DNA from: Escherichia phage vB_Eco_F27
Sequence record: OP870146.1
DNA: 64,000 nt
Strand: one strand, 5' to 3'
The position numbers and the translations under genes are program-made. Below are positions 2,157-12,668 of this stretch, in pieces. The notes beneath the pieces are model-generated. The model was not told where the DNA came from, searched no databases, and saw only the letters and a program-made list of their open reading frames with translations. The stretch's first letter is position 1. The number at the start of each line of letters is the position of its first letter.

Positions 2157-2615
2157 TTATAGGAGGGTAGTGAGCACCTTATATAATGATTTGCCCATTA
2201 CATATTCCCATTGAGAAGGTTTAATTAAAGCGAATGCATCAAATTCAGGAATCTGACGTCCGTCTGGGAATGTATGATAGGAATTACAAACACTGTTTCT
2301 GAATTGCTCGTGCTCTACAGGGATGGTATATAGGAACAGATGAATATTCTTATTGTCTGAGTAATGATGTTCACCTAGGTCTTTCAGGAAGGCAGGGTCA
2401 TATTGTGTAAACCCAGTTTCTTCTTCGCATTCACGAATAGCGGCTTCAATAGGAGATTCGCCAGGTTCGACACGGCCTTTAGGAATATCCCACCGATGAG
2501 CTAATGCACCTTTAGGACGAGAACCAGTTACACGGCCCATGAATAATTCTTTATCTTTTGTCATGAAGATAATACCAGCGGACAACTCTTTCACTTTATT
2601 TTTCTTACTCATCAT
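2157..2615 (-). CDS. nudE: Nudix hydrolase (T4 NudE / e.1 homolog), 152 aa
   Basis: Nudix box GRVEPGESPIEAAIRECEEETGF; position immediately downstream of e as in T4. Confidence 0.8.
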   Translation of the reverse strand: MMSKKNKVKELSAGIIFMTKDKELFMGRVTGSRPKGALAHRWDIPKGRVEPGESPIEAAIRECEEETGFTQYDPAFLKDLGEHHYSDNKNIHLFLYTIPVEHEQFRNSVCNSYHTFPDGRQIPEFDAFALIKPSQWEYVMGKSLYKVLTTLL

Positions 2616-2841
2616 CTCGGTCCCATGATTTGGCCATTAATTCGGACATAAATTCTTCAATGCGCGTTTCTTTAGATGGACTTTCACTATTAGAGACCGC
2701 AAGTTTGTAATCTGCAATAGGACAGAACATATCAAGGTCCATATTAAGGTCGTCTTTGATTTTTTCTTCTGACACATCTTTATCGTATGTGTACAGATAA
2801 CTATCACATGATTCTGATTTAATGTAAATTGCTATACTCAT
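2605..2841 (-). CDS. hypothetical protein (78 aa from ATG 2839-2841; alternative ATG at 2854-2856)
   Basis: ORF track; ATGA overlap with stop of upstream gene; AGGAA SD before the 2841 ATG. Confidence 0.4.
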   Translation of the reverse strand: MSIAIYIKSESCDSYLYTYDKDVSEEKIKDDLNMDLDMFCPIADYKLAVSNSESPSKETRIEEFMSELMAKSWDRDDE

Positions 2842-3329
2842 CTCAAATTCCTGCATTCGGTAATAAAACGTTCAACTTCATTATTCTTGGCCTTTATCTT
2901 GTCTTTACGTTCCTGTAAACTACTTTTAACAAGATTAATAATGATGCCTACAGTACCTCCACCAATAATACCACCAATAATACTTACAATAGTAGATGCT
3001 AATAAGATAGCGATAATATCTAGTACAGCAAAGGCACTTACTTTAGTACTAAAAAACCATACCGACGGTACAAATATAATCCATCCTGTTATCCATTGGC
3101 ACTTATTGAAAAACTTTTCAAGCTCAGCTTGAGTTGTTCGTATTACTTCATCGATAGGTTGATATCCATTAATGTATCTGTTCACAATAATACCTGCTGG
3201 CTGGTCGATTTTAAATTCTTGGCAAATATGTTTCACTAAGTAGGATGGACATCCTGTCCAATCTACCGAATAATACGAAATACCTTCGTTGCCATCGTCT
3301 ATATTAGACCAATATGTTTTGTTAATCAT
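2838..3329 (-). CDS. small membrane protein, C-terminal ERFITECR tail (ENFIKECR-tail family), 163 aa
   Basis: ORF track trimmed to ATG 3327-3329; hydrophobic segment AVLDIIAILLASTIVSIIGGIIGGGTVGIIINLV; conserved C-terminal tail. Confidence 0.5.
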   Translation of the reverse strand: MINKTYWSNIDDGNEGISYYSVDWTGCPSYLVKHICQEFKIDQPAGIIVNRYINGYQPIDEVIRTTQAELEKFFNKCQWITGWIIFVPSVWFFSTKVSAFAVLDIIAILLASTIVSIIGGIIGGGTVGIIINLVKSSLQERKDKIKAKNNEVERFITECRNLR

Positions 3330-4015
3330 TACCAACCTTCCATAGGGAATTCCAGATAAACTTGGGCATTGACACGAATTTCATTGGTAATCTTTTTAAC
3401 TCGGTCTGTATTACGAGATACACGTCCGAACCAACGCCATCCATTACTAATTGCACGAGAACCAGTGTGCCATGTTTGCCAATCAAACTGAAGAAGAGTA
3501 CGATCTGGAGCTTCCCATTTCTCTAGTTCACCTTTTTCAATTTTTTCGAGGACTTCTTTGTGCCACTGGCGATAGATAAGTTCGCCATCAGGAATCTGAC
3601 TGAACTCTGCAGTTCCTGTTGCAAAATGAGTAGGACACACATCAGCGTTAACAAGACCAAGAATATGTTCAGACAAATAGCGAGGATTGTCATAATCAGG
3701 TTGTCCTGCAGTAATAAAATGTTGTCCTGTTGGAATATCTGGGCGTGGTACGTCATCATGGTGATATCCAGGAATAGCAGGGTACCAACCAGGCATCAAC
3801 ATGTGGACTCGTGAATCAAATACTACATCCGAGTCTTTCCAATCGTCAGGGAGATTTTGAATAAAGCTACGAGTAATTGGGCCGCCATTATCAAAAGCAA
3901 AATTCAAATCGCAGTTAAAGAACATAGGCTCGTTTTTAATCTGGTCGTTTTTAATCGCATGAGCAAAACCACCTACTGCACGAGCTTGACTATTAAACAC
4001 TTTAGAACTATTCAT
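3329..4015 (-). CDS. hypothetical protein, 228 aa
   Basis: ORF track; ATG 4013-4015 with GAGGAAAA SD; no motif recognised. Confidence 0.5.
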   Translation of the reverse strand: MNSSKVFNSQARAVGGFAHAIKNDQIKNEPMFFNCDLNFAFDNGGPITRSFIQNLPDDWKDSDVVFDSRVHMLMPGWYPAIPGYHHDDVPRPDIPTGQHFITAGQPDYDNPRYLSEHILGLVNADVCPTHFATGTAEFSQIPDGELIYRQWHKEVLEKIEKGELEKWEAPDRTLLQFDWQTWHTGSRAISNGWRWFGRVSRNTDRVKKITNEIRVNAQVYLEFPMEGW

Positions 4016-4016
4016 A

Positions 4017-4322
4017 TTATTTTCCTCGACATTCTTTAATGAAATTTTCTAGATTGGTAGATTCAATAGCTTTTTTACGAGCTTCAACATGTTCTTCTTC
4101 AGACAATTTACATTTATAATTGACCCAGACATTATGGTCGAAACTAGTCGTGGCATATAATAACAAAGCTCCGACGAATAATAAAAACGGTGATAAGAAT
4201 ATACAACCAGGCACACCATCCATACTGTAAGCCTTTTGTAATACTGCAACAGAAAGAGTTGCGTAAAAAAGTGATGCAAATATTGTTAAAAGACCAATTC
4301 GGTTGGTTTCGCCTAATTTCAT
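4017..4322 (-). CDS. small membrane protein, C-terminal ENFIKECRGK tail, 101 aa
   Basis: ORF track; ATG 4320-4322 with GAGGAG SD; early promoter immediately upstream; hydrophobic segments. Confidence 0.55.
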   Translation of the reverse strand: MKLGETNRIGLLTIFASLFYATLSVAVLQKAYSMDGVPGCIFLSPFLLFVGALLLYATTSFDHNVWVNYKCKLSEEEHVEARKKAIESTNLENFIKECRGK

Positions 4323-4350
4323 AATATTCTCCTCATGTTTTAATAGGACT

Positions 4351-4379
4351 ACTATAACATAGTCCTATAATTGTGTAAA
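4351..4379 (-). promoter_or_regulatory. early (sigma70-type) promoter: -35 TTTACA, 17-bp spacer, -10 TATAGT
   Basis: Minus-strand sense GTTTACAcaattATAGGACTAtgTTATAGTAGTCCTAT; 9-bp inverted repeat around the -10. Confidence 0.55.
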
Positions 4380-4392
4380 CAGTTTTGCGAAA

Positions 4393-5349
4393 TTATTTGA
4401 AAGGTTTTACCATATGGAAATTTTGTTTGAAACGTTTGACGTAATCGTCATGTCCTAAGCTTTGGTACATACTTACTACTTTGCTGTAGTTTTCCCAGGC
4501 GTATTCACGGAACCAACCGGAGGTGATGCTTGTGCAGACTTTTTCTAATGCCATCATGAAACTGGCTTCAGGGTTAATTTTAAAGTCATTAGGAATCTGA
4601 GAACGTTCTAATGCTAGTACACATGATTCTTCATATACACCGGCCAATTTGACCATTTCTGGTAACGATTCGAACTTCTCGCGTGAGGTCATGACTTCAG
4701 AACCGTCTTTCATATAAAATGTATAAGCCGGACGGTCTGTTAGTGCAATGGCTTCATGAATAGTATCATGGTCATATGTATAGATGTCATCTTTAAAGAA
4801 CGCACTTTTAGAAGTGTCAAGAACCGGGTGAGCATAGTTCAAGGTTTCTTTCTGGCGTTTCAGCATAATTTCAGTAAGTTCATCGTTCAGTGTAACACCT
4901 TTACCACGAAGATACTGAATATGGTTCATAGTCTTTAAAAAGAATGGATTATTTTTCTTGAAACGATGAGACATCTTAATTGCAAGACATATCTCAGGAG
5001 TTGCCCAGTAAAACCCGTTCAAACGGTCTTTAGTCAAATTTTTCTTGGCGTATTTTAAAAGGTCATAAGAAGACGTGAAATCTTCAGGAGTGAGTTCACC
5101 GACTAATTCACGGACATTAGTGATTGCCGGAACAATATATGCTTCAAAATGAGTTTCGCGTCCATTATGGAAGCATTTGAAAACTTGGACATCAGGGTTA
5201 TCTTGGTGAACATATACACCCATCATTTGATTTTTGAATGCATTCCAAGAACCTTGGTCCGCAATAAAGTCCCAATCGCTATTTTTGATAGCGCTAGAAT
5301 CAATAAGACCATGATAGTGAAGTGCACGAGAACCAATAACTAACATCAT
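4393..5349 (-). CDS. hypothetical early protein, 318 aa; possible nucleotidyltransferase-like N-terminus
   Basis: ORF track; ATG-ATG start with GAGGAAA SD; N-terminal LVIGSRALHYHGLIDSSAIKNSDWDF resembles a GS...DxD motif (weak). Confidence 0.5.
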   Translation of the reverse strand: MMLVIGSRALHYHGLIDSSAIKNSDWDFIADQGSWNAFKNQMMGVYVHQDNPDVQVFKCFHNGRETHFEAYIVPAITNVRELVGELTPEDFTSSYDLLKYAKKNLTKDRLNGFYWATPEICLAIKMSHRFKKNNPFFLKTMNHIQYLRGKGVTLNDELTEIMLKRQKETLNYAHPVLDTSKSAFFKDDIYTYDHDTIHEAIALTDRPAYTFYMKDGSEVMTSREKFESLPEMVKLAGVYEESCVLALERSQIPNDFKINPEASFMMALEKVCTSITSGWFREYAWENYSKVVSMYQSLGHDDYVKRFKQNFHMVKPFK

Positions 5350-5377
5350 AATATTTTCCTCGGATTAATTCATTAAC

Positions 5378-5629
5378 TTAAATTTCACGACATGCGATAT
5401 TATATTCGTCCCAGAGGTCATCGTGTGAAGCCTCTACCAATGGAACGATTGTACCGTTTATGTCTTCATTATAAGGGCAAATTGTACAGTGCGCATCTTC
5501 GAATCGGATGCCTTTGTGTTCAGATTTTTTATAACGCATATCGAATATCTTTGCAAACTTTTCACGAGTAATGGTTTTAGCAACCACTTTGGTTCCGATA
5601 CTTTCGTAATAAATCATTGTGGACTCCAT
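5378..5629 (-). CDS. hypothetical protein, 83 aa
   Basis: ORF track; ATG 5627-5629; early promoter upstream. Confidence 0.45.
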   Translation of the reverse strand: MESTMIYYESIGTKVVAKTITREKFAKIFDMRYKKSEHKGIRFEDAHCTICPYNEDINGTIVPLVEASHDDLWDEYNIACREI

Positions 5630-5645
5630 TTAATTTGATAGGACT

Positions 5646-5674
5646 ACTATAACATAGCCCTATCTTGTTGTAAA
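5646..5674 (-). promoter_or_regulatory. early promoter (-35 TTTACA / -10 TATAGT)
   Basis: Same architecture and spacing as 4351-4379. Confidence 0.5.
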
Positions 5675-5679
5675 CTGTT

Positions 5680-5877
5680 TTAGCAAGAATAACTAGATGA
5701 TACCCAGCCTTGAACAGTGATACTATTATGGGATAATGAGATCGCGTCCTGGAGATTCAGACCTGCGTTATCTTCAATCCATAATGTAACTTCTTCGCGT
5801 TCTTCTGTTGCAATTTGGAACAGGTTTTCCAGAGCAGCTACTGCCGTACGTACAGCACAATCTAATTCACGAGACAT
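5680..5877 (-). CDS. small protein, tandem paralog A (C-terminal QGWVSSSYSC), 65 aa
   Basis: ATG 5875-5877 with AAGGAAAC SD overlapping the stop of the upstream paralog. Confidence 0.55.
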   Translation of the reverse strand: MSRELDCAVRTAVAALENLFQIATEEREEVTLWIEDNAGLNLQDAISLSHNSITVQGWVSSSYSC

Positions 5878-5886
5878 ATTGTTTCC

Positions 5887-6159
5887 TTAGCAAGTGTGAG
5901 AAGATGCGACCCAACCACCAGTTTCGAGGCTCAGGTTGTAGTCGTATTGGTAAACGTCAGCCCATTCAGCATAGCCGTTTTTTGTACAACGTTCAAGATC
6001 GGCTTTAAGATGTCCGGGTGAATGATAGGTTCCACCCATACCATAAGCTGGATACAAGTCGAATGTTGTGTTTTGTTTATCAGCAATTTCTTTGGCAGCC
6101 TCAATAGCTGCATAGATTTTTGCTACAGCTTCAGCCAGTTCGGTTTGTTCTTTAGACAT
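5887..6159 (-). CDS. small protein, tandem paralog B (C-terminal GGWVASSHTC), 90 aa
   Basis: ATG 6157-6159 with AAGGAA SD. Confidence 0.55.
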   Translation of the reverse strand: MSKEQTELAEAVAKIYAAIEAAKEIADKQNTTFDLYPAYGMGGTYHSPGHLKADLERCTKNGYAEWADVYQYDYNLSLETGGWVASSHTC

Positions 6160-6168
6160 AATGATTCC

Positions 6169-6474
6169 TTAGCACAACGCAGAAGACGAAACCCAAGCAC
6201 CTTCAGTAATAACGTAACCATTACCTTCACGCTTAACATCGCCACCATTATTTTCAATTTCATCTTTCATCCACTGGGATACGATTTCACCCTTAGGATA
6301 ATAAGTACGACCACTACCATAATCACCTACAGAAAATGATACGGCATATTGGTCTGCGATCTTTGTTGCTTCTTCTTCGATACGTTCAGCTTGATTCAGA
6401 AGTTTATAAATTGCATCTGAAGCGGATTTGGCATCATTAAACTCTGGTACTTTAATTTCAATAATCTTACTCAT
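6169..6474 (-). CDS. small protein, tandem paralog C (C-terminal GAWVSSSALC), 101 aa
   Basis: ATG 6472-6474 with AAGGAATG SD; ATGA overlap with upstream gene. Confidence 0.55.
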   Translation of the reverse strand: MSKIIEIKVPEFNDAKSASDAIYKLLNQAERIEEEATKIADQYAVSFSVGDYGSGRTYYPKGEIVSQWMKDEIENNGGDVKREGNGYVITEGAWVSSSALC

Positions 6475-6830
6475 TTTCTACATTCCTTAATAAAGTTTTC
6501 GATTGTTTCATTTTCACGTCTAGCTAGGAGTTCATTATAACTAATCGTTTGAGAAGCGTAAACCTTTTTATTTTTCTTGTTGTGGTTTATAAAATCGTAG
6601 TAAAAATAGACTACAGTACAAAATGATGCGATGGATGCAAAGGCTTGGGTATACCGTAAGTCCTGCCATTGGTCTGTGAATCCACCAGTGTTCCCTATAA
6701 ATCCTAACACAACGCCGTCAATAAGAAATCCAACTAATCCAAAGGCAAATCCCATGCCAATACTCATAATAAAAATTAGAATGTTCTCACCAAGAGAAGG
6801 CCATACGGTTAAGAGTTGAGGCTTTTGCAT
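6471..6830 (-). CDS. small membrane protein, C-terminal ENFIKECRK tail, 119 aa
   Basis: ATG 6828-6830 with AAGGAAAT SD; hydrophobic segments LIFIMSIGMGFAFGLVGFLIDGVVLGFIG. Confidence 0.55.
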   Translation of the reverse strand: MQKPQLLTVWPSLGENILIFIMSIGMGFAFGLVGFLIDGVVLGFIGNTGGFTDQWQDLRYTQAFASIASFCTVVYFYYDFINHNKKNKKVYASQTISYNELLARRENETIENFIKECRK

Positions 6831-7204
6831 CTTATTTCCTTAACGAATTCCATAGCTTCTTCATATTCATACTTTTTAACAGCTTCATCATACTGAGCTT
6901 GGGCTTTTGCGCACTGAACTTTCCATTCGCGTACTCGAGCTCTATAATGACGGCCTTGGTGCCAATATCCTGCCCAATTAATAGGCATTAATAAAAATGG
7001 CACAATAAACGGCCCGGCTATAATAAGTAAAAACACTGCATCAGACGATATAACTTCACTAGAATCTAAAACAGCTCCTATAATCATAAAGATTAAAAAT
7101 GCTAAAGCTAAAATAGGGCCAAATAGTACTTCATTTGGGATTAATTTACGTTTGTATTCGTATGCCCAGGGCTTAATTGGCATGTACAGGGTTGGCTTTG
7201 ACAT
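6809..7204 (-). CDS. small membrane protein (C-terminal EFVKEIRCK), about 131 aa from ATG 7202-7204
   Basis: ORF track trimmed; two hydrophobic segments; start embedded in the ECR-encoding tail of the upstream gene. Confidence 0.45.
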   Translation of the reverse strand: MSKPTLYMPIKPWAYEYKRKLIPNEVLFGPILALAFLIFMIIGAVLDSSEVISSDAVFLLIIAGPFIVPFLLMPINWAGYWHQGRHYRARVREWKVQCAKAQAQYDEAVKKYEYEEAMEFVKEIRCKSLNS

Positions 7205-7775
7205 ATTCTCTACATTCCATAATAAATTGCTCAAGGATTAAATTGTTAGTGAAATTAGGACTAACAACCATAGTTTCATAAAGCGCATCAATAGCACTTA
7301 AAGCATCAACTCTTTTAAGCAAAGGCTTGCCTTCATACATAGTTTCAGAATCGATGATTAACGTAAAGTAATATTTTTTATTATCGACTAGAACTTCCGT
7401 ATCGATATAAAACATATTAGACCTCAGAAGCTTATCTCTAAAACCATAATAATCTTCAGAGCGTTCGCTGATATATTCCCATTCAGTGTTTAAACAACAA
7501 ACAGACCATGTAGGAGCAACGAAATCGGTGAATCTAATATCATGGTCTGCAACTAGTTTAGCAATAGCTCCGATATCATGAATCATAATACCTGGGGCTA
7601 ATAAAGATTTTCTGCTATGGCTAGCCGTTTTCTCAGTAGTCTCATAAGAAGACGACCAGTACCATTTACGTCCAGTTGCAACATATCGTAATGAATCAAC
7701 TAAAGATGTAGGTGGATTTACCTTATCTCGGAACTCTTCGAACATTGAGTCAATATCATTATTTTGGTTTCGCAT
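7173..7775 (-). CDS. hypothetical protein with FIMECR motif near C-terminus, 200 aa
   Basis: ORF track trimmed to ATG 7773-7775 with AAGGAG SD. Confidence 0.5.
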   Translation of the reverse strand: MRNQNNDIDSMFEEFRDKVNPPTSLVDSLRYVATGRKWYWSSSYETTEKTASHSRKSLLAPGIMIHDIGAIAKLVADHDIRFTDFVAPTWSVCCLNTEWEYISERSEDYYGFRDKLLRSNMFYIDTEVLVDNKKYYFTLIIDSETMYEGKPLLKRVDALSAIDALYETMVVSPNFTNNLILEQFIMECREYVKANPVHAN

Positions 7776-7798
7776 GTTAACTCCTTTATTATCCAAAA

Positions 7799-7816
7799 GG
7801 AGGACCGGAGTCCTCC
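7799..7816 (-). terminator. rho-independent terminator hairpin GGAGGAC-uccg-GUCCUCC followed by U-run (minus-strand sense)
   Basis: Perfect 7-bp GC-rich stem directly after the stop of CDS 7825-8418. Confidence 0.6.
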
Positions 7817-7824
7817 GTATTATT

Positions 7825-8418
7825 TTATTTCAAAGAGTTAATATATTCTTGTACATCAGCAGAAGTGGTTTCGACGCCGGCTGGAGTGCCATTGAACGTT
7901 TCAACACGAGTCAGAGTGTCTTCGATATCAACCTTAGTCAGTGCAGCGATTTCAATTACATCATCGGCCGTAGAGATACCAAGGGCATTGGCTGCTCGAG
8001 TTTCACGAATGTATTCGAGTTTGATTGCCAGGTTCTGACGAGCATCGTCAAGTTCAACCACCTTACGAGCAATTTCAATTCGCATAGCGGCATACCCGTC
8101 AGCTTTTGTATTAAGTTGTTCGGCAGTTCGACGATACAGAAGACCAAGCTTAGCATGCATGGTAACATCTTGTCCTTCAGCCAGGAGCTTACGAATTTCA
8201 CGTTCCTTAGAAGCGGCTTGCTTGTTCTTTTCATTAACAAGTTCGCGAATACGTTTTTCTTCATTAATAGATTTAACAGAAGCCGTTTTTAGTTCTTTGA
8301 TTTGGGTAATCAACTTATCTGCAGCTGCGTTATACTGTTCTTCGACAGTCAGATTTTTAGCCATAGCAGTACCAAGTTTAGTGCGGATGAATTCAACAAG
8401 TTTCTTCAGTGTGTTCAT
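7825..8418 (-). CDS. coiled-coil protein, possibly PspA/IM30-like, 197 aa
   Basis: ORF track trimmed from TTG to ATG 8416-8418; heptad-rich, charged sequence; family call is tentative. Confidence 0.4.
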
Positions 8419-9411: not shown

Positions 9412-10038
9412 TTACTTACGAGTTTTTGCATATTGAGCAGCGTCAGCAGCCAAACGACCTGCCTGACGAAGTTTTTCTTTAATCGCATCGTGAAGTGGTT
9501 GAGTGTACTTCAAACCTTCGATAGTCAAATAAAGACGATAAAGGTCCGGGGTATCAAGGTTGTTGATATGTTGGCCATTACGAAGAATATTGAATTCACG
9601 AACGAGTGAAGATGTATCGGATTCAATATCACGAACAAGCGAAGATAGTTGTTTATATTTTTTTTCCAGACTAGAAGTATCAAACTTAAGAGCAGGAGCT
9701 TTAGGAGTTGCTTTTACTTCAGGCTTAGGCTCAGGTTTTGCTATTGCTTTAGGGGTCGCAGGTTTAGGAATGGAAGGAGTAGGTTTTACTTTAGGCGAAC
9801 CCGATTTAGCAGAAACACCACCACTAACAATATCTTTGAATGCTTTAGAAGCTCTGTAATATTCTTTTTGGCTGGAAGTGTCGATACCGTACATGGCTTG
9901 AACGTTTTTGAAAAACTCTGTACTAGTTTTTGTACCAGAAATAGCATCGTAAGCAGCTTGCCATTTCTCTTTTGTCATACGTACACCGGCTTCGGTGATT
10001 ACTTCCGTTTCGGCTAAAAATTCATTAAAAGTATACAT
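9412..10038 (-). CDS. internal head protein-like (N-terminus MYTFNEFLAE) with Pro/Lys-rich linker, 208 aa
   Basis: ORF track; ATG 10036-10038; late promoter TATAAATA about 36 nt upstream; PKVKPTPSIPKPATPKAIAKPEPKPEVKATPKAP segment. Confidence 0.5.
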   Translation of the reverse strand: MYTFNEFLAETEVITEAGVRMTKEKWQAAYDAISGTKTSTEFFKNVQAMYGIDTSSQKEYYRASKAFKDIVSGGVSAKSGSPKVKPTPSIPKPATPKAIAKPEPKPEVKATPKAPALKFDTSSLEKKYKQLSSLVRDIESDTSSLVREFNILRNGQHINNLDTPDLYRLYLTIEGLKYTQPLHDAIKEKLRQAGRLAADAAQYAKTRK

Positions 10039-12031: not shown

Positions 12032-12295
12032 TTATTTCAAATATATTGCGTATTTTTTATAGCCACCAGGCTCGTGTCGAAGACCTTTATCATTCGCAAA
12101 ACGTTGAATGTTATTGAACTGATTTTCATCAAGTTCGGATGTGTCAAATATGAAAAAGTTTCGTTTGTTGCCAAGCGTGATATGCGGAGTTAAGTCAATG
12201 TTATACAAATTAAGAATATCAGCAATAACCTGATTGACCGCTTTGTTAATTTTCACACCAGACGATTCTGAGATGAATTCGTTGAAAGTTTTCAT
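12032..12295 (-). CDS. internal head protein-like (N-terminus MKTFNEFISE), 87 aa
   Basis: ORF track trimmed to ATG 12293-12295; CTS-like N-terminus. Confidence 0.45.
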   Translation of the reverse strand: MKTFNEFISESSGVKINKAVNQVIADILNLYNIDLTPHITLGNKRNFFIFDTSELDENQFNNIQRFANDKGLRHEPGGYKKYAIYLK

Positions 12296-12356: not shown

Positions 12357-12668
12357 TTATTTTATGCCTTTAGAAGAAATGGTGTTTTGGCGTTTGGTCC
12401 CTGTTTGTGAAAAATCGTGGTTATCGATTTGGTCGACTCGCATAACACCAAATGCAGATTTAATTTTAGCCTTTGAACCTTTTTTGATACTAATTATCAT
12501 ATAAGTATCATTTTTCTTATATTCGAAATTTGTTACTTCAACGCCTTGATTAGAAATTGACTTAATAATAGCATTAGCGTATTCATCATCTAACGGACCG
12601 GTGGTGTTAATAATAAAATTTTTATCGGCTTTAGTAGCTTCAGCGATAAACTCTTGATAAGTTTTCAT
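12357..12668 (-). CDS. internal head protein (N-terminus MKTYQEFIAE, identical to the T4 capsid targeting sequence), in the ipI map position, 103 aa
   Basis: ORF track trimmed to ATG 12666-12668; adjacent to 57B as ipI is in T4. Confidence 0.6.
   Translation of the reverse strand: MKTYQEFIAEATKADKNFIINTTGPLDDEYANAIIKSISNQGVEVTNFEYKKNDTYMIISIKKGSKAKIKSAFGVMRVDQIDNHDFSQTGTKRQNTISSKGIK

Follow-up and report, generated by a model that had tools for sequence, protein, structure and literature searches.

Several genes in one accessory region of a T-even-type phage end in nearly the same short peptide, while the DNA encoding it also holds initiation signals of the next gene. This raises the question of whether the peptide or the nucleic acid is conserved, and what a peptide shared by such proteins might do. 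The genes lie in a 64,000-nucleotide stretch of Escherichia phage vB_Eco_F27 (record OP870146.1; the window hereafter). The window belongs to an RB69-like Mosigvirus; over bases 2600-8000, identity is 98.4% to Escherichia phage mogra and 97.1% to RB69, in whose record the five genes concerned are named e.2, RB69ORF133c (ORF133c below), e.3, e.4 and e.5. They sit within the accessory cluster that runs from lysozyme/nudE to e.6. The initial annotation described five minus-strand open reading frames (ORFs) ending in an E-N-F-I-K-E-C-R tail, and all five were found with the C-termini it gave, the tail of e.4 being degenerate (Table 1). Our analysis shows that the shared element is under selection as a peptide and not as ribosome-binding DNA.

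Translated in all six frames, the 64 kb contained four matches to the strict pattern E-x-F-I-x-E-C-R, each in these genes and 1-11 residues from the stop; 30 shuffles of the window contained none. A hidden Markov model (HMM) of the tail was scanned end to end over an RB69-type genome, consisting of three RB69 segments plus the window. Only the same four tails scored 15 bits or more, and the next best match, at 7.5 bits, fell in a non-genic ORF. The motif is thus genuine, lies close to the C-terminus and, within an RB69-type genome, is limited to this cluster. In e.4 and e.5 it is near-terminal and not terminal, as four and 11 residues, respectively, follow it.

We then took 80 loci from IMG/VR, using the conserved neighbour ORF132c as anchor. 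In their gene-strand ORFs, 70 occurrences of the core F-[IVLM]-x-x-C-R were counted, and 65 of these lay within 15 residues of the stop (binomial P ~4e-49, near-C-terminal positions being 14% of all positions and the orthologues not being independent). On the opposite strand of the same loci the core was found in six places, one of them near a stop. The tail HMM gave 97 matches of at least 7 bits in these loci, every one C-terminal. The tails were found only in loci with Tevenvirinae synteny (e.6, nudE, e, ORF134c), where they co-occur with e.6, ORF134c and the genes whose products end in GWVSSSxxC, and they were absent where ORF132c lies in other phage backgrounds.

Within individual families, the tail outlasts the other parts of the protein. 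An exhaustive HMMER search with an e.5 profile against 1.84 billion cluster representatives (50% identity clusters) recovered only ten clusters, and all ten end in [D/E/N/Q]-x-F-[I/V]-x-x-C-[R/K]-[D/E/K/R]. When ten e.5-type proteins, 17-46% identical to the window protein, were aligned, the only invariant columns were M1, N96, F184, C188 and R189, the last three of which are tail residues. The 11 invariant columns of e.2 (minimum identity 24%) include F..CR, and the 22 of e.4 (minimum identity 31%) include F.KE.R. In e.3 (minimum identity 19%), F and C are among 11 invariant columns; R is not, since the SP18-type e.3 ends in FIKECKS. The non-redundant consensus (n=55) is a K/E-rich stretch followed by φ(-3; L27 F9 I7 V6)-[N18 E11 D10]-x-F-[I43 V8 L4]-x-x-C-R and a further 1-15 residues, φ being hydrophobic. 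The tail proposed initially is thus a real recurrent element, but its core is φ-[NED]-x-F-[IV]-x-x-C-R; its two Glu residues belong to the RB69 lineage, and conservation of the Glu at +3 does not extend beyond the RB69 and T4 lineages.

The proteins carrying this tail did not form the single family of small membrane proteins that had been proposed. Hydrophobic helices had been noted in at least four of the five, and transmembrane (TM) segments were indeed predicted in e.2, ORF133c, e.3 and e.4; e.5 has none and is soluble, and among relatives small soluble proteins also carry the tail. With the tail removed, BLAST clustering separated the carriers into about two dozen groups of three architectural types: small inner-membrane proteins with one or two predicted TM segments, a K/R/E-rich stretch and the tail last (e.2, ORF133c, e.3, e.4 and others); soluble proteins of 174-243 aa at the e.5 position, in which the 5-15 residues after the tail overlap the start of the next gene; and soluble proteins of 92-116 aa of the SP18gp135 and CIP9_242 types. 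Comparison of the tail-less bodies by hhalign linked e.5-type groups, with probabilities of 88% and 67%, as well as some evident orthologues. Among the bodies of e.2, e.3, e.4 and ORF133c, which are fast-evolving TM proteins, probabilities stayed below 12% and no relationship was detected. In PHROGs, the five proteins fall into five separate families with no function attached, namely 2203 (e.2), 9798 (ORF133c), 2330 (e.3), 2604 (e.4) and 2607 (e.5), and the sole cross-match, obtained with the tail included, was between ORF133c and the C-terminal half of the e.2 family (E=2e-5).

We next weighed the possibility that nucleic acid is what is conserved, each 3' end serving as an initiation or coupling region of the next gene with the peptide as its by-product. 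All five window tails do contain or adjoin the Shine-Dalgarno (SD) sequence or the ATG of the next gene. When the next ATG lies at +19 to +22 from the Phe codon, the two unconstrained codons are AAG GAA, GAG GAA, GAG GAT or AAA GGA, placing the SD in the variable positions. The Cys of e.4 is made by the e.3 ATG, and an internal deletion of e.3 in LF82-1 (L003 4990-5090), phiC120 (L004) and other Mosigviruses, which leaves MQKP followed by a stop, spares the last 90 nt (~30 codons) including ENFIKECRK, directly upstream of the next gene. The 3' end retained in these variants may have a role in downstream translation.

The synonymous sites, however, are free. The differences cited initially, TGC/TGT for Cys and AGG/CGA/AGA for Arg, were all correct, and they extend across relatives: in 53 unique 18-nt versions of the motif, Cys is encoded by TGT (26) or TGC (27), Phe by TTT (36) or TTC (17), Ile by ATT, ATC or ATA, and Arg by all six codons of both the AGR and CGN families (AGA 15, AGG 8, CGT 15, CGA 7, CGC 7 and CGG 1). 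Third codon positions carry 0.1-1.1 bits. Because the set was chosen by its amino-acid pattern, the invariance of first and second positions is by construction, and the informative part is that no extra nucleotide constraint is seen. The distance to the next start also varies. Measured from the Phe codon, the next ATG was +19 to +121 nt away over 74 unique contexts, of which 39 had it no further than +28, 18 between +29 and +45 and 16 beyond +45; in the window's e.4, whose degenerate tail is outside this tally, the e.3 ATG lies at +17. In SP18gp135-type genes (protein end ...KLFLEYCRSDVQL), the stop is at +33 and the next start at about +79; with this spacer of about 46 nt, the motif exists without an overlapping start region. 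The two variable codons are AAA GAA, which is not an SD, in ORF133c and ACC GAA in e.2, and the peptide is kept in both.

A comparison that had been suggested as a test of the peptide explanation, that of orthologues preceding a different gene, did not refute it: e.3 precedes a GWVSSS-family gene in the window and e.2 in T4, e.2 precedes ORF130c in the window and nudE in Enterobacter phage CIP9, and the motif is kept in T4 e.3 and CIP9 e.2. Six motif-free control junctions of the array reach SD duplex energies of -3.9 to -9.4 kcal/mol, equal to or better than the -3.3 to -6.1 kcal/mol of the five motif junctions. No unusual RNA structure was detected at the motif junctions (z -1.3 to +2.0), and an Rfam search for the element gave no match. 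The nucleic-acid explanation as sole cause is largely refuted, and we give it very little credence. Free synonymous sites, a variable distance to the ATG and retention of the motif in front of a changed downstream gene all point to selection on the peptide, as had been argued from the window.

The related idea that one short element does double duty as protein tail and initiation region stood in part. In each of the five window cases, the SD or ATG of the next gene falls within the motif codons or directly behind them, but the spacing is variable, motif-free junctions have SDs that are equally good, and the coincidence is incidental. With a next start at +26 to +28, it is the Arg codon together with its successor (AGG AAT, CGA GGA) that provides the SD. 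Because the genes of the array abut or overlap, the SD is often written into the two free codons or into Arg plus the next codon, which is a secondary accommodation. The overlap shapes codon choice and, in e.4, even residues, but it does not keep F, I/V, C and R invariant. The e.4 protein carries a degenerate variant of the tail, and its Cys, in R-C, is not the motif Cys: in T4 and RB69, it is a by-product of the overlapping e.3 start, because AGA-TGC carries the e.3 initiation codon. The e.4 orthologues of SP18 and CIP9 have no Cys (FIKEVRNGTA and FIKNVRRK). The array offers a natural example of dual coding in compact phage operons, in which peptide residues are fixed and the ribosome-binding site is placed in free codons or in the choice of Arg codon. 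ATGA stop/start overlaps and SDs inside upstream coding sequence are features of translational coupling in such operons. The junctions here resemble them in that the e.3 tail ends in ATGA and five downstream genes have their SDs within or immediately behind motif codons. Coupling signals are, however, a nucleotide constraint at fixed distance, whereas the tail has free synonymous sites and a spacing of +17 to more than +100 nt.

Among relatives, T4 has the tail on three genes: e.3 (...KEFVIDCRKIK), e.4 (...KFVKESRCKSQS) and e.5 (...EKFVKECREYVKAITIPSK). T4 e.2 (L002 3653-3961) is a truncated form of 102 aa that ends in FYFFIKIQWTE and lacks the tail; the missing second half and tail are present in the e.2 of RB69, SP18 and CIP9. 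Between T4 e.2 and nudE lies an unannotated gap of ~160 nt, at the place of the RB69-type ORF130c. By tblastn, only Mosigvirus and Tequatrovirus yielded recognisable e.3 and e.5, with 35-49% identity from one genus to the other; roughly 650 genomes of these two genera contain e.2, e.3, e.4 and e.5. In Shigella phage SP18 (Gaprivervirus), the ends are ...NRFIAECREYAK... at the e.5 position, ...EEFIKEVRNGTA in e.4, ...ETFIKECKS in e.3, ...KLFLEYCRSSIQV at the small-soluble position and ...NSFIEECRK at the e.2 position. Those of CIP9 (Kanagawavirus) are ...LDFVDQCRANIK..., ...ELFIKNVRRK, ...DKFIKQCRRNQNVS and ...DKFVKGCRNGRN. Two phage contigs of ~230 kb (L014 11644-12917 and L015 11405-12686) encode two adjacent proteins of 206-217 aa that end in ...SSFINYCIVNVRGEI and ...KSFVEYCIEMNKLTQEK; these variants retain F-[IV]-x-Y-C with the Arg replaced and may mark the outer limit of the motif's distribution.

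We found no previous account of the tail. A full-text literature search on the gene names and motif strings returned no description of it, in agreement with the earlier remark that no T4 protein family with this tail is known to have been described. Pfam, NCBIfam, PADLOC and PDB sequence searches gave no significant match for the carriers. Precomputed Pfam accessions in a large protein collection, which are absent from the Pfam copy searched, assign PF26896 to e.2 and PF26876 to e.5; e.2 and e.5 at least are already catalogued, singly. The catalogues keep the carriers as separate families, and none lists the tail as a cross-family feature. Homologue searches with a single e.2 or e.5 sequence returned close relatives only, whereas the profile of ten e.5-type proteins reached further. 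As far as searched, the tail is a previously undescribed C-terminal peptide on unrelated accessory proteins of enterobacterial T-even-type phages.

Constraint at the peptide level, positional specificity, restriction to one cluster and presence on unrelated bodies are directly supported by these data. The tail also has the features of a short linear motif, being short and position-specific, occurring on unrelated bodies and constraining few residues. The positive-inside rule holds that Lys/Arg-rich segments stay cytoplasmic, and the stretch after the last TM segment of the membrane carriers is Lys/Arg-rich, which would put the tail on the cytoplasmic side. Plotted on an ideal α-helix, positions -3, 0, +1, +4 and +5, which are conserved, take angles of 60°, 0°, 100°, 40° and 140°, within one arc of ~140°; the free positions -1, +2 and +3 lie across from them, at 260°, 200° and 300°, and the next conserved hydrophobic residue of e.5-type proteins (+8) lies at 80°. 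AlphaFold2 models placed the e.5 tail in a helix of residues 176-194 and the e.2 tail in a helix of residues 125-162, with low confidence. Variable residues were shared by tails of the same genome slightly more than in a permutation null (p=0.026 by identity), which is weakly compatible with co-evolution with a lineage-specific partner.

From these patterns, we propose that the consensus peptide φ(-3)-[N/D/E]-x-F(0)-[I/V]-x-x-C(+4)-R(+5) may make up the final turns of an α-helix in the cytoplasm. In the membrane carriers (e.2, ORF133c, e.3 and the degenerate e.4), it would close the K/R/E-rich linker that follows the last TM segment, and in the e.5-type and small soluble carriers it would close the polypeptide. 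Because a single-face pattern recurs on unrelated bodies within one gene cluster, the conserved helix face could be a common docking surface for unrelated early accessory proteins of the nudE-e.6 cluster; the putative partner would be either one another, in a complex tethered to the membrane, or a single phage or host protein common to all. That the tail acts as such a common docking or address tag is, in our estimation, somewhat more likely than not. At least eight families of one cluster, otherwise unrelated, have this peptide as their most conserved feature, which points to a shared partner or chemistry.

In a bolder version, the tail would be an address tag for the whole cluster, a C-terminal analogue of the idea behind the T4 capsid targeting sequence (CTS). 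A changing set of unrelated early proteins (e.2, e.3, e.4 and ORF133c as anchors, e.5, and the small soluble proteins) would be recruited to one conserved receptor on the inner face of the membrane, with Cys-Arg as the key contact or as a covalent or metal link, and new genes would join by gaining the tail. We consider this rather unlikely. Although no large phage has been studied more closely than T4, no function has been assigned to e.2-e.5 and their neighbours, and an address tag, if true, would offer an initial lead to the roles of some half a dozen T4 ORFans together.

Several observations weigh against a shared docking surface. The predicted local distance difference test scores were 52 for e.5 (18-sequence alignment) and 36 for e.2 (7 sequences), so that the helix and its one-face geometry would rest mainly on the sequence pattern. 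The hydrophobic moment was not significantly above that of shuffles (0.37 vs 0.31±0.15), and the within-genome covariation was weak, with p=0.11 under BLOSUM scoring. Individual carriers are dispensable, as the natural e.3 deletion and the tail-less T4 e.2 indicate. TM-rich small proteins diverge fast, so the membrane families may share ancestry, and ORF133c does match the e.2 PHROG when the tail is included. Finally, the invariant Cys-Arg could mean chemistry (metal ligand, thiol acceptor or modification site) instead of docking.

Shared ancestry would make the carriers diverged tandem paralogues and fusions of one tail-bearing ancestor, in which the tail is the slowest-evolving remnant, for example a stability helix, and no shared partner exists. 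In favour are the tandem clustering of the genes, a common layout of the membrane carriers (TM hairpin, charged helix and tail), the mutual relationship of e.5-type families and the adjacent e.2-like paralogues of one locus (L021; hhalign 92%), in addition to the ORF133c match. Against this, the lack of any detectable relationship among the tail-less e.2, e.3, e.4 and ORF133c bodies and the presence of the tail on soluble proteins (92-116 aa and 180-240 aa) whose predicted secondary structures differ are difficult to accommodate, and an intramolecular role alone leaves the same four invariant residues on very different bodies unexplained; we judge common descent by itself unlikely. The tail could instead be a footprint of modular shuffling, either because inserted ORFs capture the resident 3' end together with the next start or because the ends serve as recombination linkers. 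The region is hyperplastic, its gene content differs among T4, RB69, SP18 and CIP9, the e.3 deletion variants retain the 3' tail, and there is a documented precedent in the PeSL cassettes, conserved boundary elements that mediate shuffling in T4-type phages (PMC2839356, PMC4122927). PeSLs are likewise repeated conserved elements at gene boundaries of hyperplastic regions, but they are intergenic DNA made of an early promoter and a stem-loop, whereas the tail is coding, is conserved in amino acids and has no stem-loop. The ORF133c and e.3 tails are identical at 20 of 24 nt with all differences synonymous, which leaves no DNA identity beyond what the peptide demands, and so little shared identity does not suffice for homologous recombination. 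Capture of 3' ends could explain the origin of the tails and not their maintenance, since it alone does not explain why F, I, C and R persist across genera whose proteins are 20-30% identical in the body, and shuffling as the full explanation appears improbable.

Chemistry at the Cys-Arg pair, whether as a shared metal or cluster ligand, a persulfide or thiol carrier, or a modification site (e.g., for ADP-ribosylation by phage Alt or Mod), would account for the fact that these are the two strictly invariant polar residues. Neighbouring families of the cluster also end in a conserved Cys (GWVSSSxxC and YNxxC[RY]EI), and some GenBank records label e.3, e.4 or e.5 a sulfurtransferase. We found no rhodanese, TusA or other catalytic domain around the Cys by Pfam or NCBIfam, with no significant match for any of the five proteins; the e.4 family has no Cys at the canonical position, some members have K for R (...FIKECKS, ...FCKEK), and we know of no catalytic architecture consisting of a lone Cys in a short helix. 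A chemical role of this kind therefore seems doubtful, at a low probability. As to the labels, several phage records (e.g., OP870144, OM386662 and OK272484) name e.3, e.4 or e.5 "sulfurtransferase", and record OR125554 names e.5 "site-specific RNA endonuclease". Neither label has domain evidence in Pfam or NCBIfam, and both are probably annotation carry-over.

The least probable candidate, to the point of rejection, was that the tail is a C-terminal counterpart of the CTS itself, which reads MKTYQEFIAE in internal proteins of T4 (PMC8442874), or that it is a gp21 protease site (I-x-E, cleaved after the Glu). There is a local likeness of xEF[IL]xE to ExF[IV]xE, and CTS-bearing genes lie nearby in the window. 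The CTS scores only ~4 bits against the tail HMM, however; it lies at the other terminus, has different invariant residues and no Cys-Arg, the would-be P1 Glu at +3 is not conserved across genera, and four of the five window carriers are integral membrane proteins. As a concept, the CTS is nevertheless the nearest known counterpart. The two are alike in being short conserved terminal peptides on unrelated, hypervariable small T-even proteins of the same genome region, the CTS being an address tag. They differ in that the CTS is N-terminal and removed by the prohead protease, whereas the tail is C-terminal and mostly on membrane proteins, so the analogy is one of concept only and not of membership. 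Six small minus-strand genes of the window start with MKT[YF]xEF[IL]xE (832-852, 1157-1177, 1608-1628, 10009-10029, 12266-12286 and 12639-12659), for which shuffles predict 0.13 occurrences. Because these starts match the T4 CTS, the window encodes at least six CTS-bearing, probably head-packaged, proteins; some of the genes lie at the positions of T4 ipII and ipIII.

A model for how a docking tail might act is given by the sliding-clamp-binding C-terminal tails of T4 gp43, gp55 and gp33, through which unrelated proteins bind one partner. Like the tail described here, these are short C-terminal hydrophobic/aromatic peptides on unrelated proteins. Their sequence is different and most of the present carriers are membrane-anchored, so the parallel is a model of action and not a family assignment.

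Table 1. Tail-bearing genes of the window, their tails and the initiation signals of the genes that follow
Feature	Position	Strand	Description
e.2 homologue, 163 aa	2838..3329	-	N-terminal soluble domain, two predicted TM segments, K/R/E-rich linker, tail; phrog_2203
e.2 tail	2850..2873	-	E-R-F-I-T-E-C-R, then N-L-R-stop (...ERFITECRNLR)
ORF130c start	ATG 2841-2839	-	e.2 R-N codons AGG AAT give the SD AGGA of ORF130c
ORF133c homologue, 101 aa	4017..4322	-	Two predicted TM segments, charged linker, tail; phrog_9798
ORF133c tail	4026..4049	-	E-N-F-I-K-E-C-R, then G-K-stop (...ENFIKECRGK)
ORF132c start	ATG 4015-4013	-	ORF133c R-G codons CGA GGA give the SD GAGGA
e.3 homologue, 119 aa	6471..6830	-	Membrane protein, tail at extreme C-terminus; phrog_2330
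e.3 tail	6477..6500	-	E-N-F-I-K-E-C-R, then K-stop (...ENFIKECRK)
Start of gene after e.3	SD 6483-6488; ATG 6474-6472	-	e.3 variable codons K-E (AAG GAA) are the SD; ATG overlaps the e.3 stop as ATGA
e.4 homologue, 131 aa from MSKP	6809..7204	-	Two predicted TM segments, long charged helix, degenerate tail
e.4 variant tail	6827..6847	-	F-V-K-E-I-R-C; protein end ...EFVKEIRCKSLNS
e.3 start	ATG 6830-6828	-	e.4 AAG GAA is the e.3 SD; AGA-TGC holds the e.3 ATG
e.5 homologue, 200 aa, soluble	7173..7775	-	Tail 11 residues before stop; 3' end overlaps e.4 start; phrog_2607
e.5 tail	7209..7232	-	E-Q-F-I-M-E-C-R, then E-Y-V-K; protein end ...EQFIMECREYVKANPVHAN
e.4 start	ATG 7204-7202	-	

The e.4 start at 7204 agrees with that of T4 e.4, and the RB69 record starts the gene 21 nt further in, at an internal Met (window 7183). 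Of the neighbouring genes, three in tandem on the minus strand (5680-5877, 5887-6159 and 6169-6474) encode small soluble proteins ending in W-[VI]-[SA]-S-S-x-x-Cys (GAWVSSSALC, GGWVASSHTC and GWVSSSYSC). Relatives occur at 1658-2926 in L005 and at 2966-4045 and 4392-4589 in L006, with 3-5 copies per genome, and these proteins co-occur with the F-I-x-x-C-R tails. The TAA stop after their terminal Cys fuses with the next SD as TAAGGA. The products of 5887-6159 and 6169-6474 match PHROG 899 and the 65-aa product of 5680-5877 matches PHROG 4882, with no function attached to either. The S-x-x-C terminus recalls substrates of peptide modification; no modifying enzyme was identified. The 101-aa ORF at 6169-6474 is split into ORF138c and ORF139c in the RB69 record, by a frameshift or an RB69 sequence error.

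A third family of the cluster with a conserved near-terminal Cys is that of RB69ORF135c, whose homologue in the window (5378-5629, minus strand) ends in WDEYNIACREI and whose CIP9 counterpart (L006 4600-4830) ends in YNTYCYEI. Pfam, NCBIfam, PADLOC and PDB sequence searches gave no significant match for the neighbours e.6, ORF132c and ORF134c, and a PspA-like identity considered for e.6 found no support. The ORF134c homologue lies at 4393-5349 and carries DUF7277 and DUF7275. The ORF132c homologue (3329-4015), without a Pfam or PDB match, contains a PGYHHDD motif and was found in 92 IMG/VR stretches at 49-98% identity, many of them from phages without any of the neighbouring genes; for a phage protein it is unusually well conserved.

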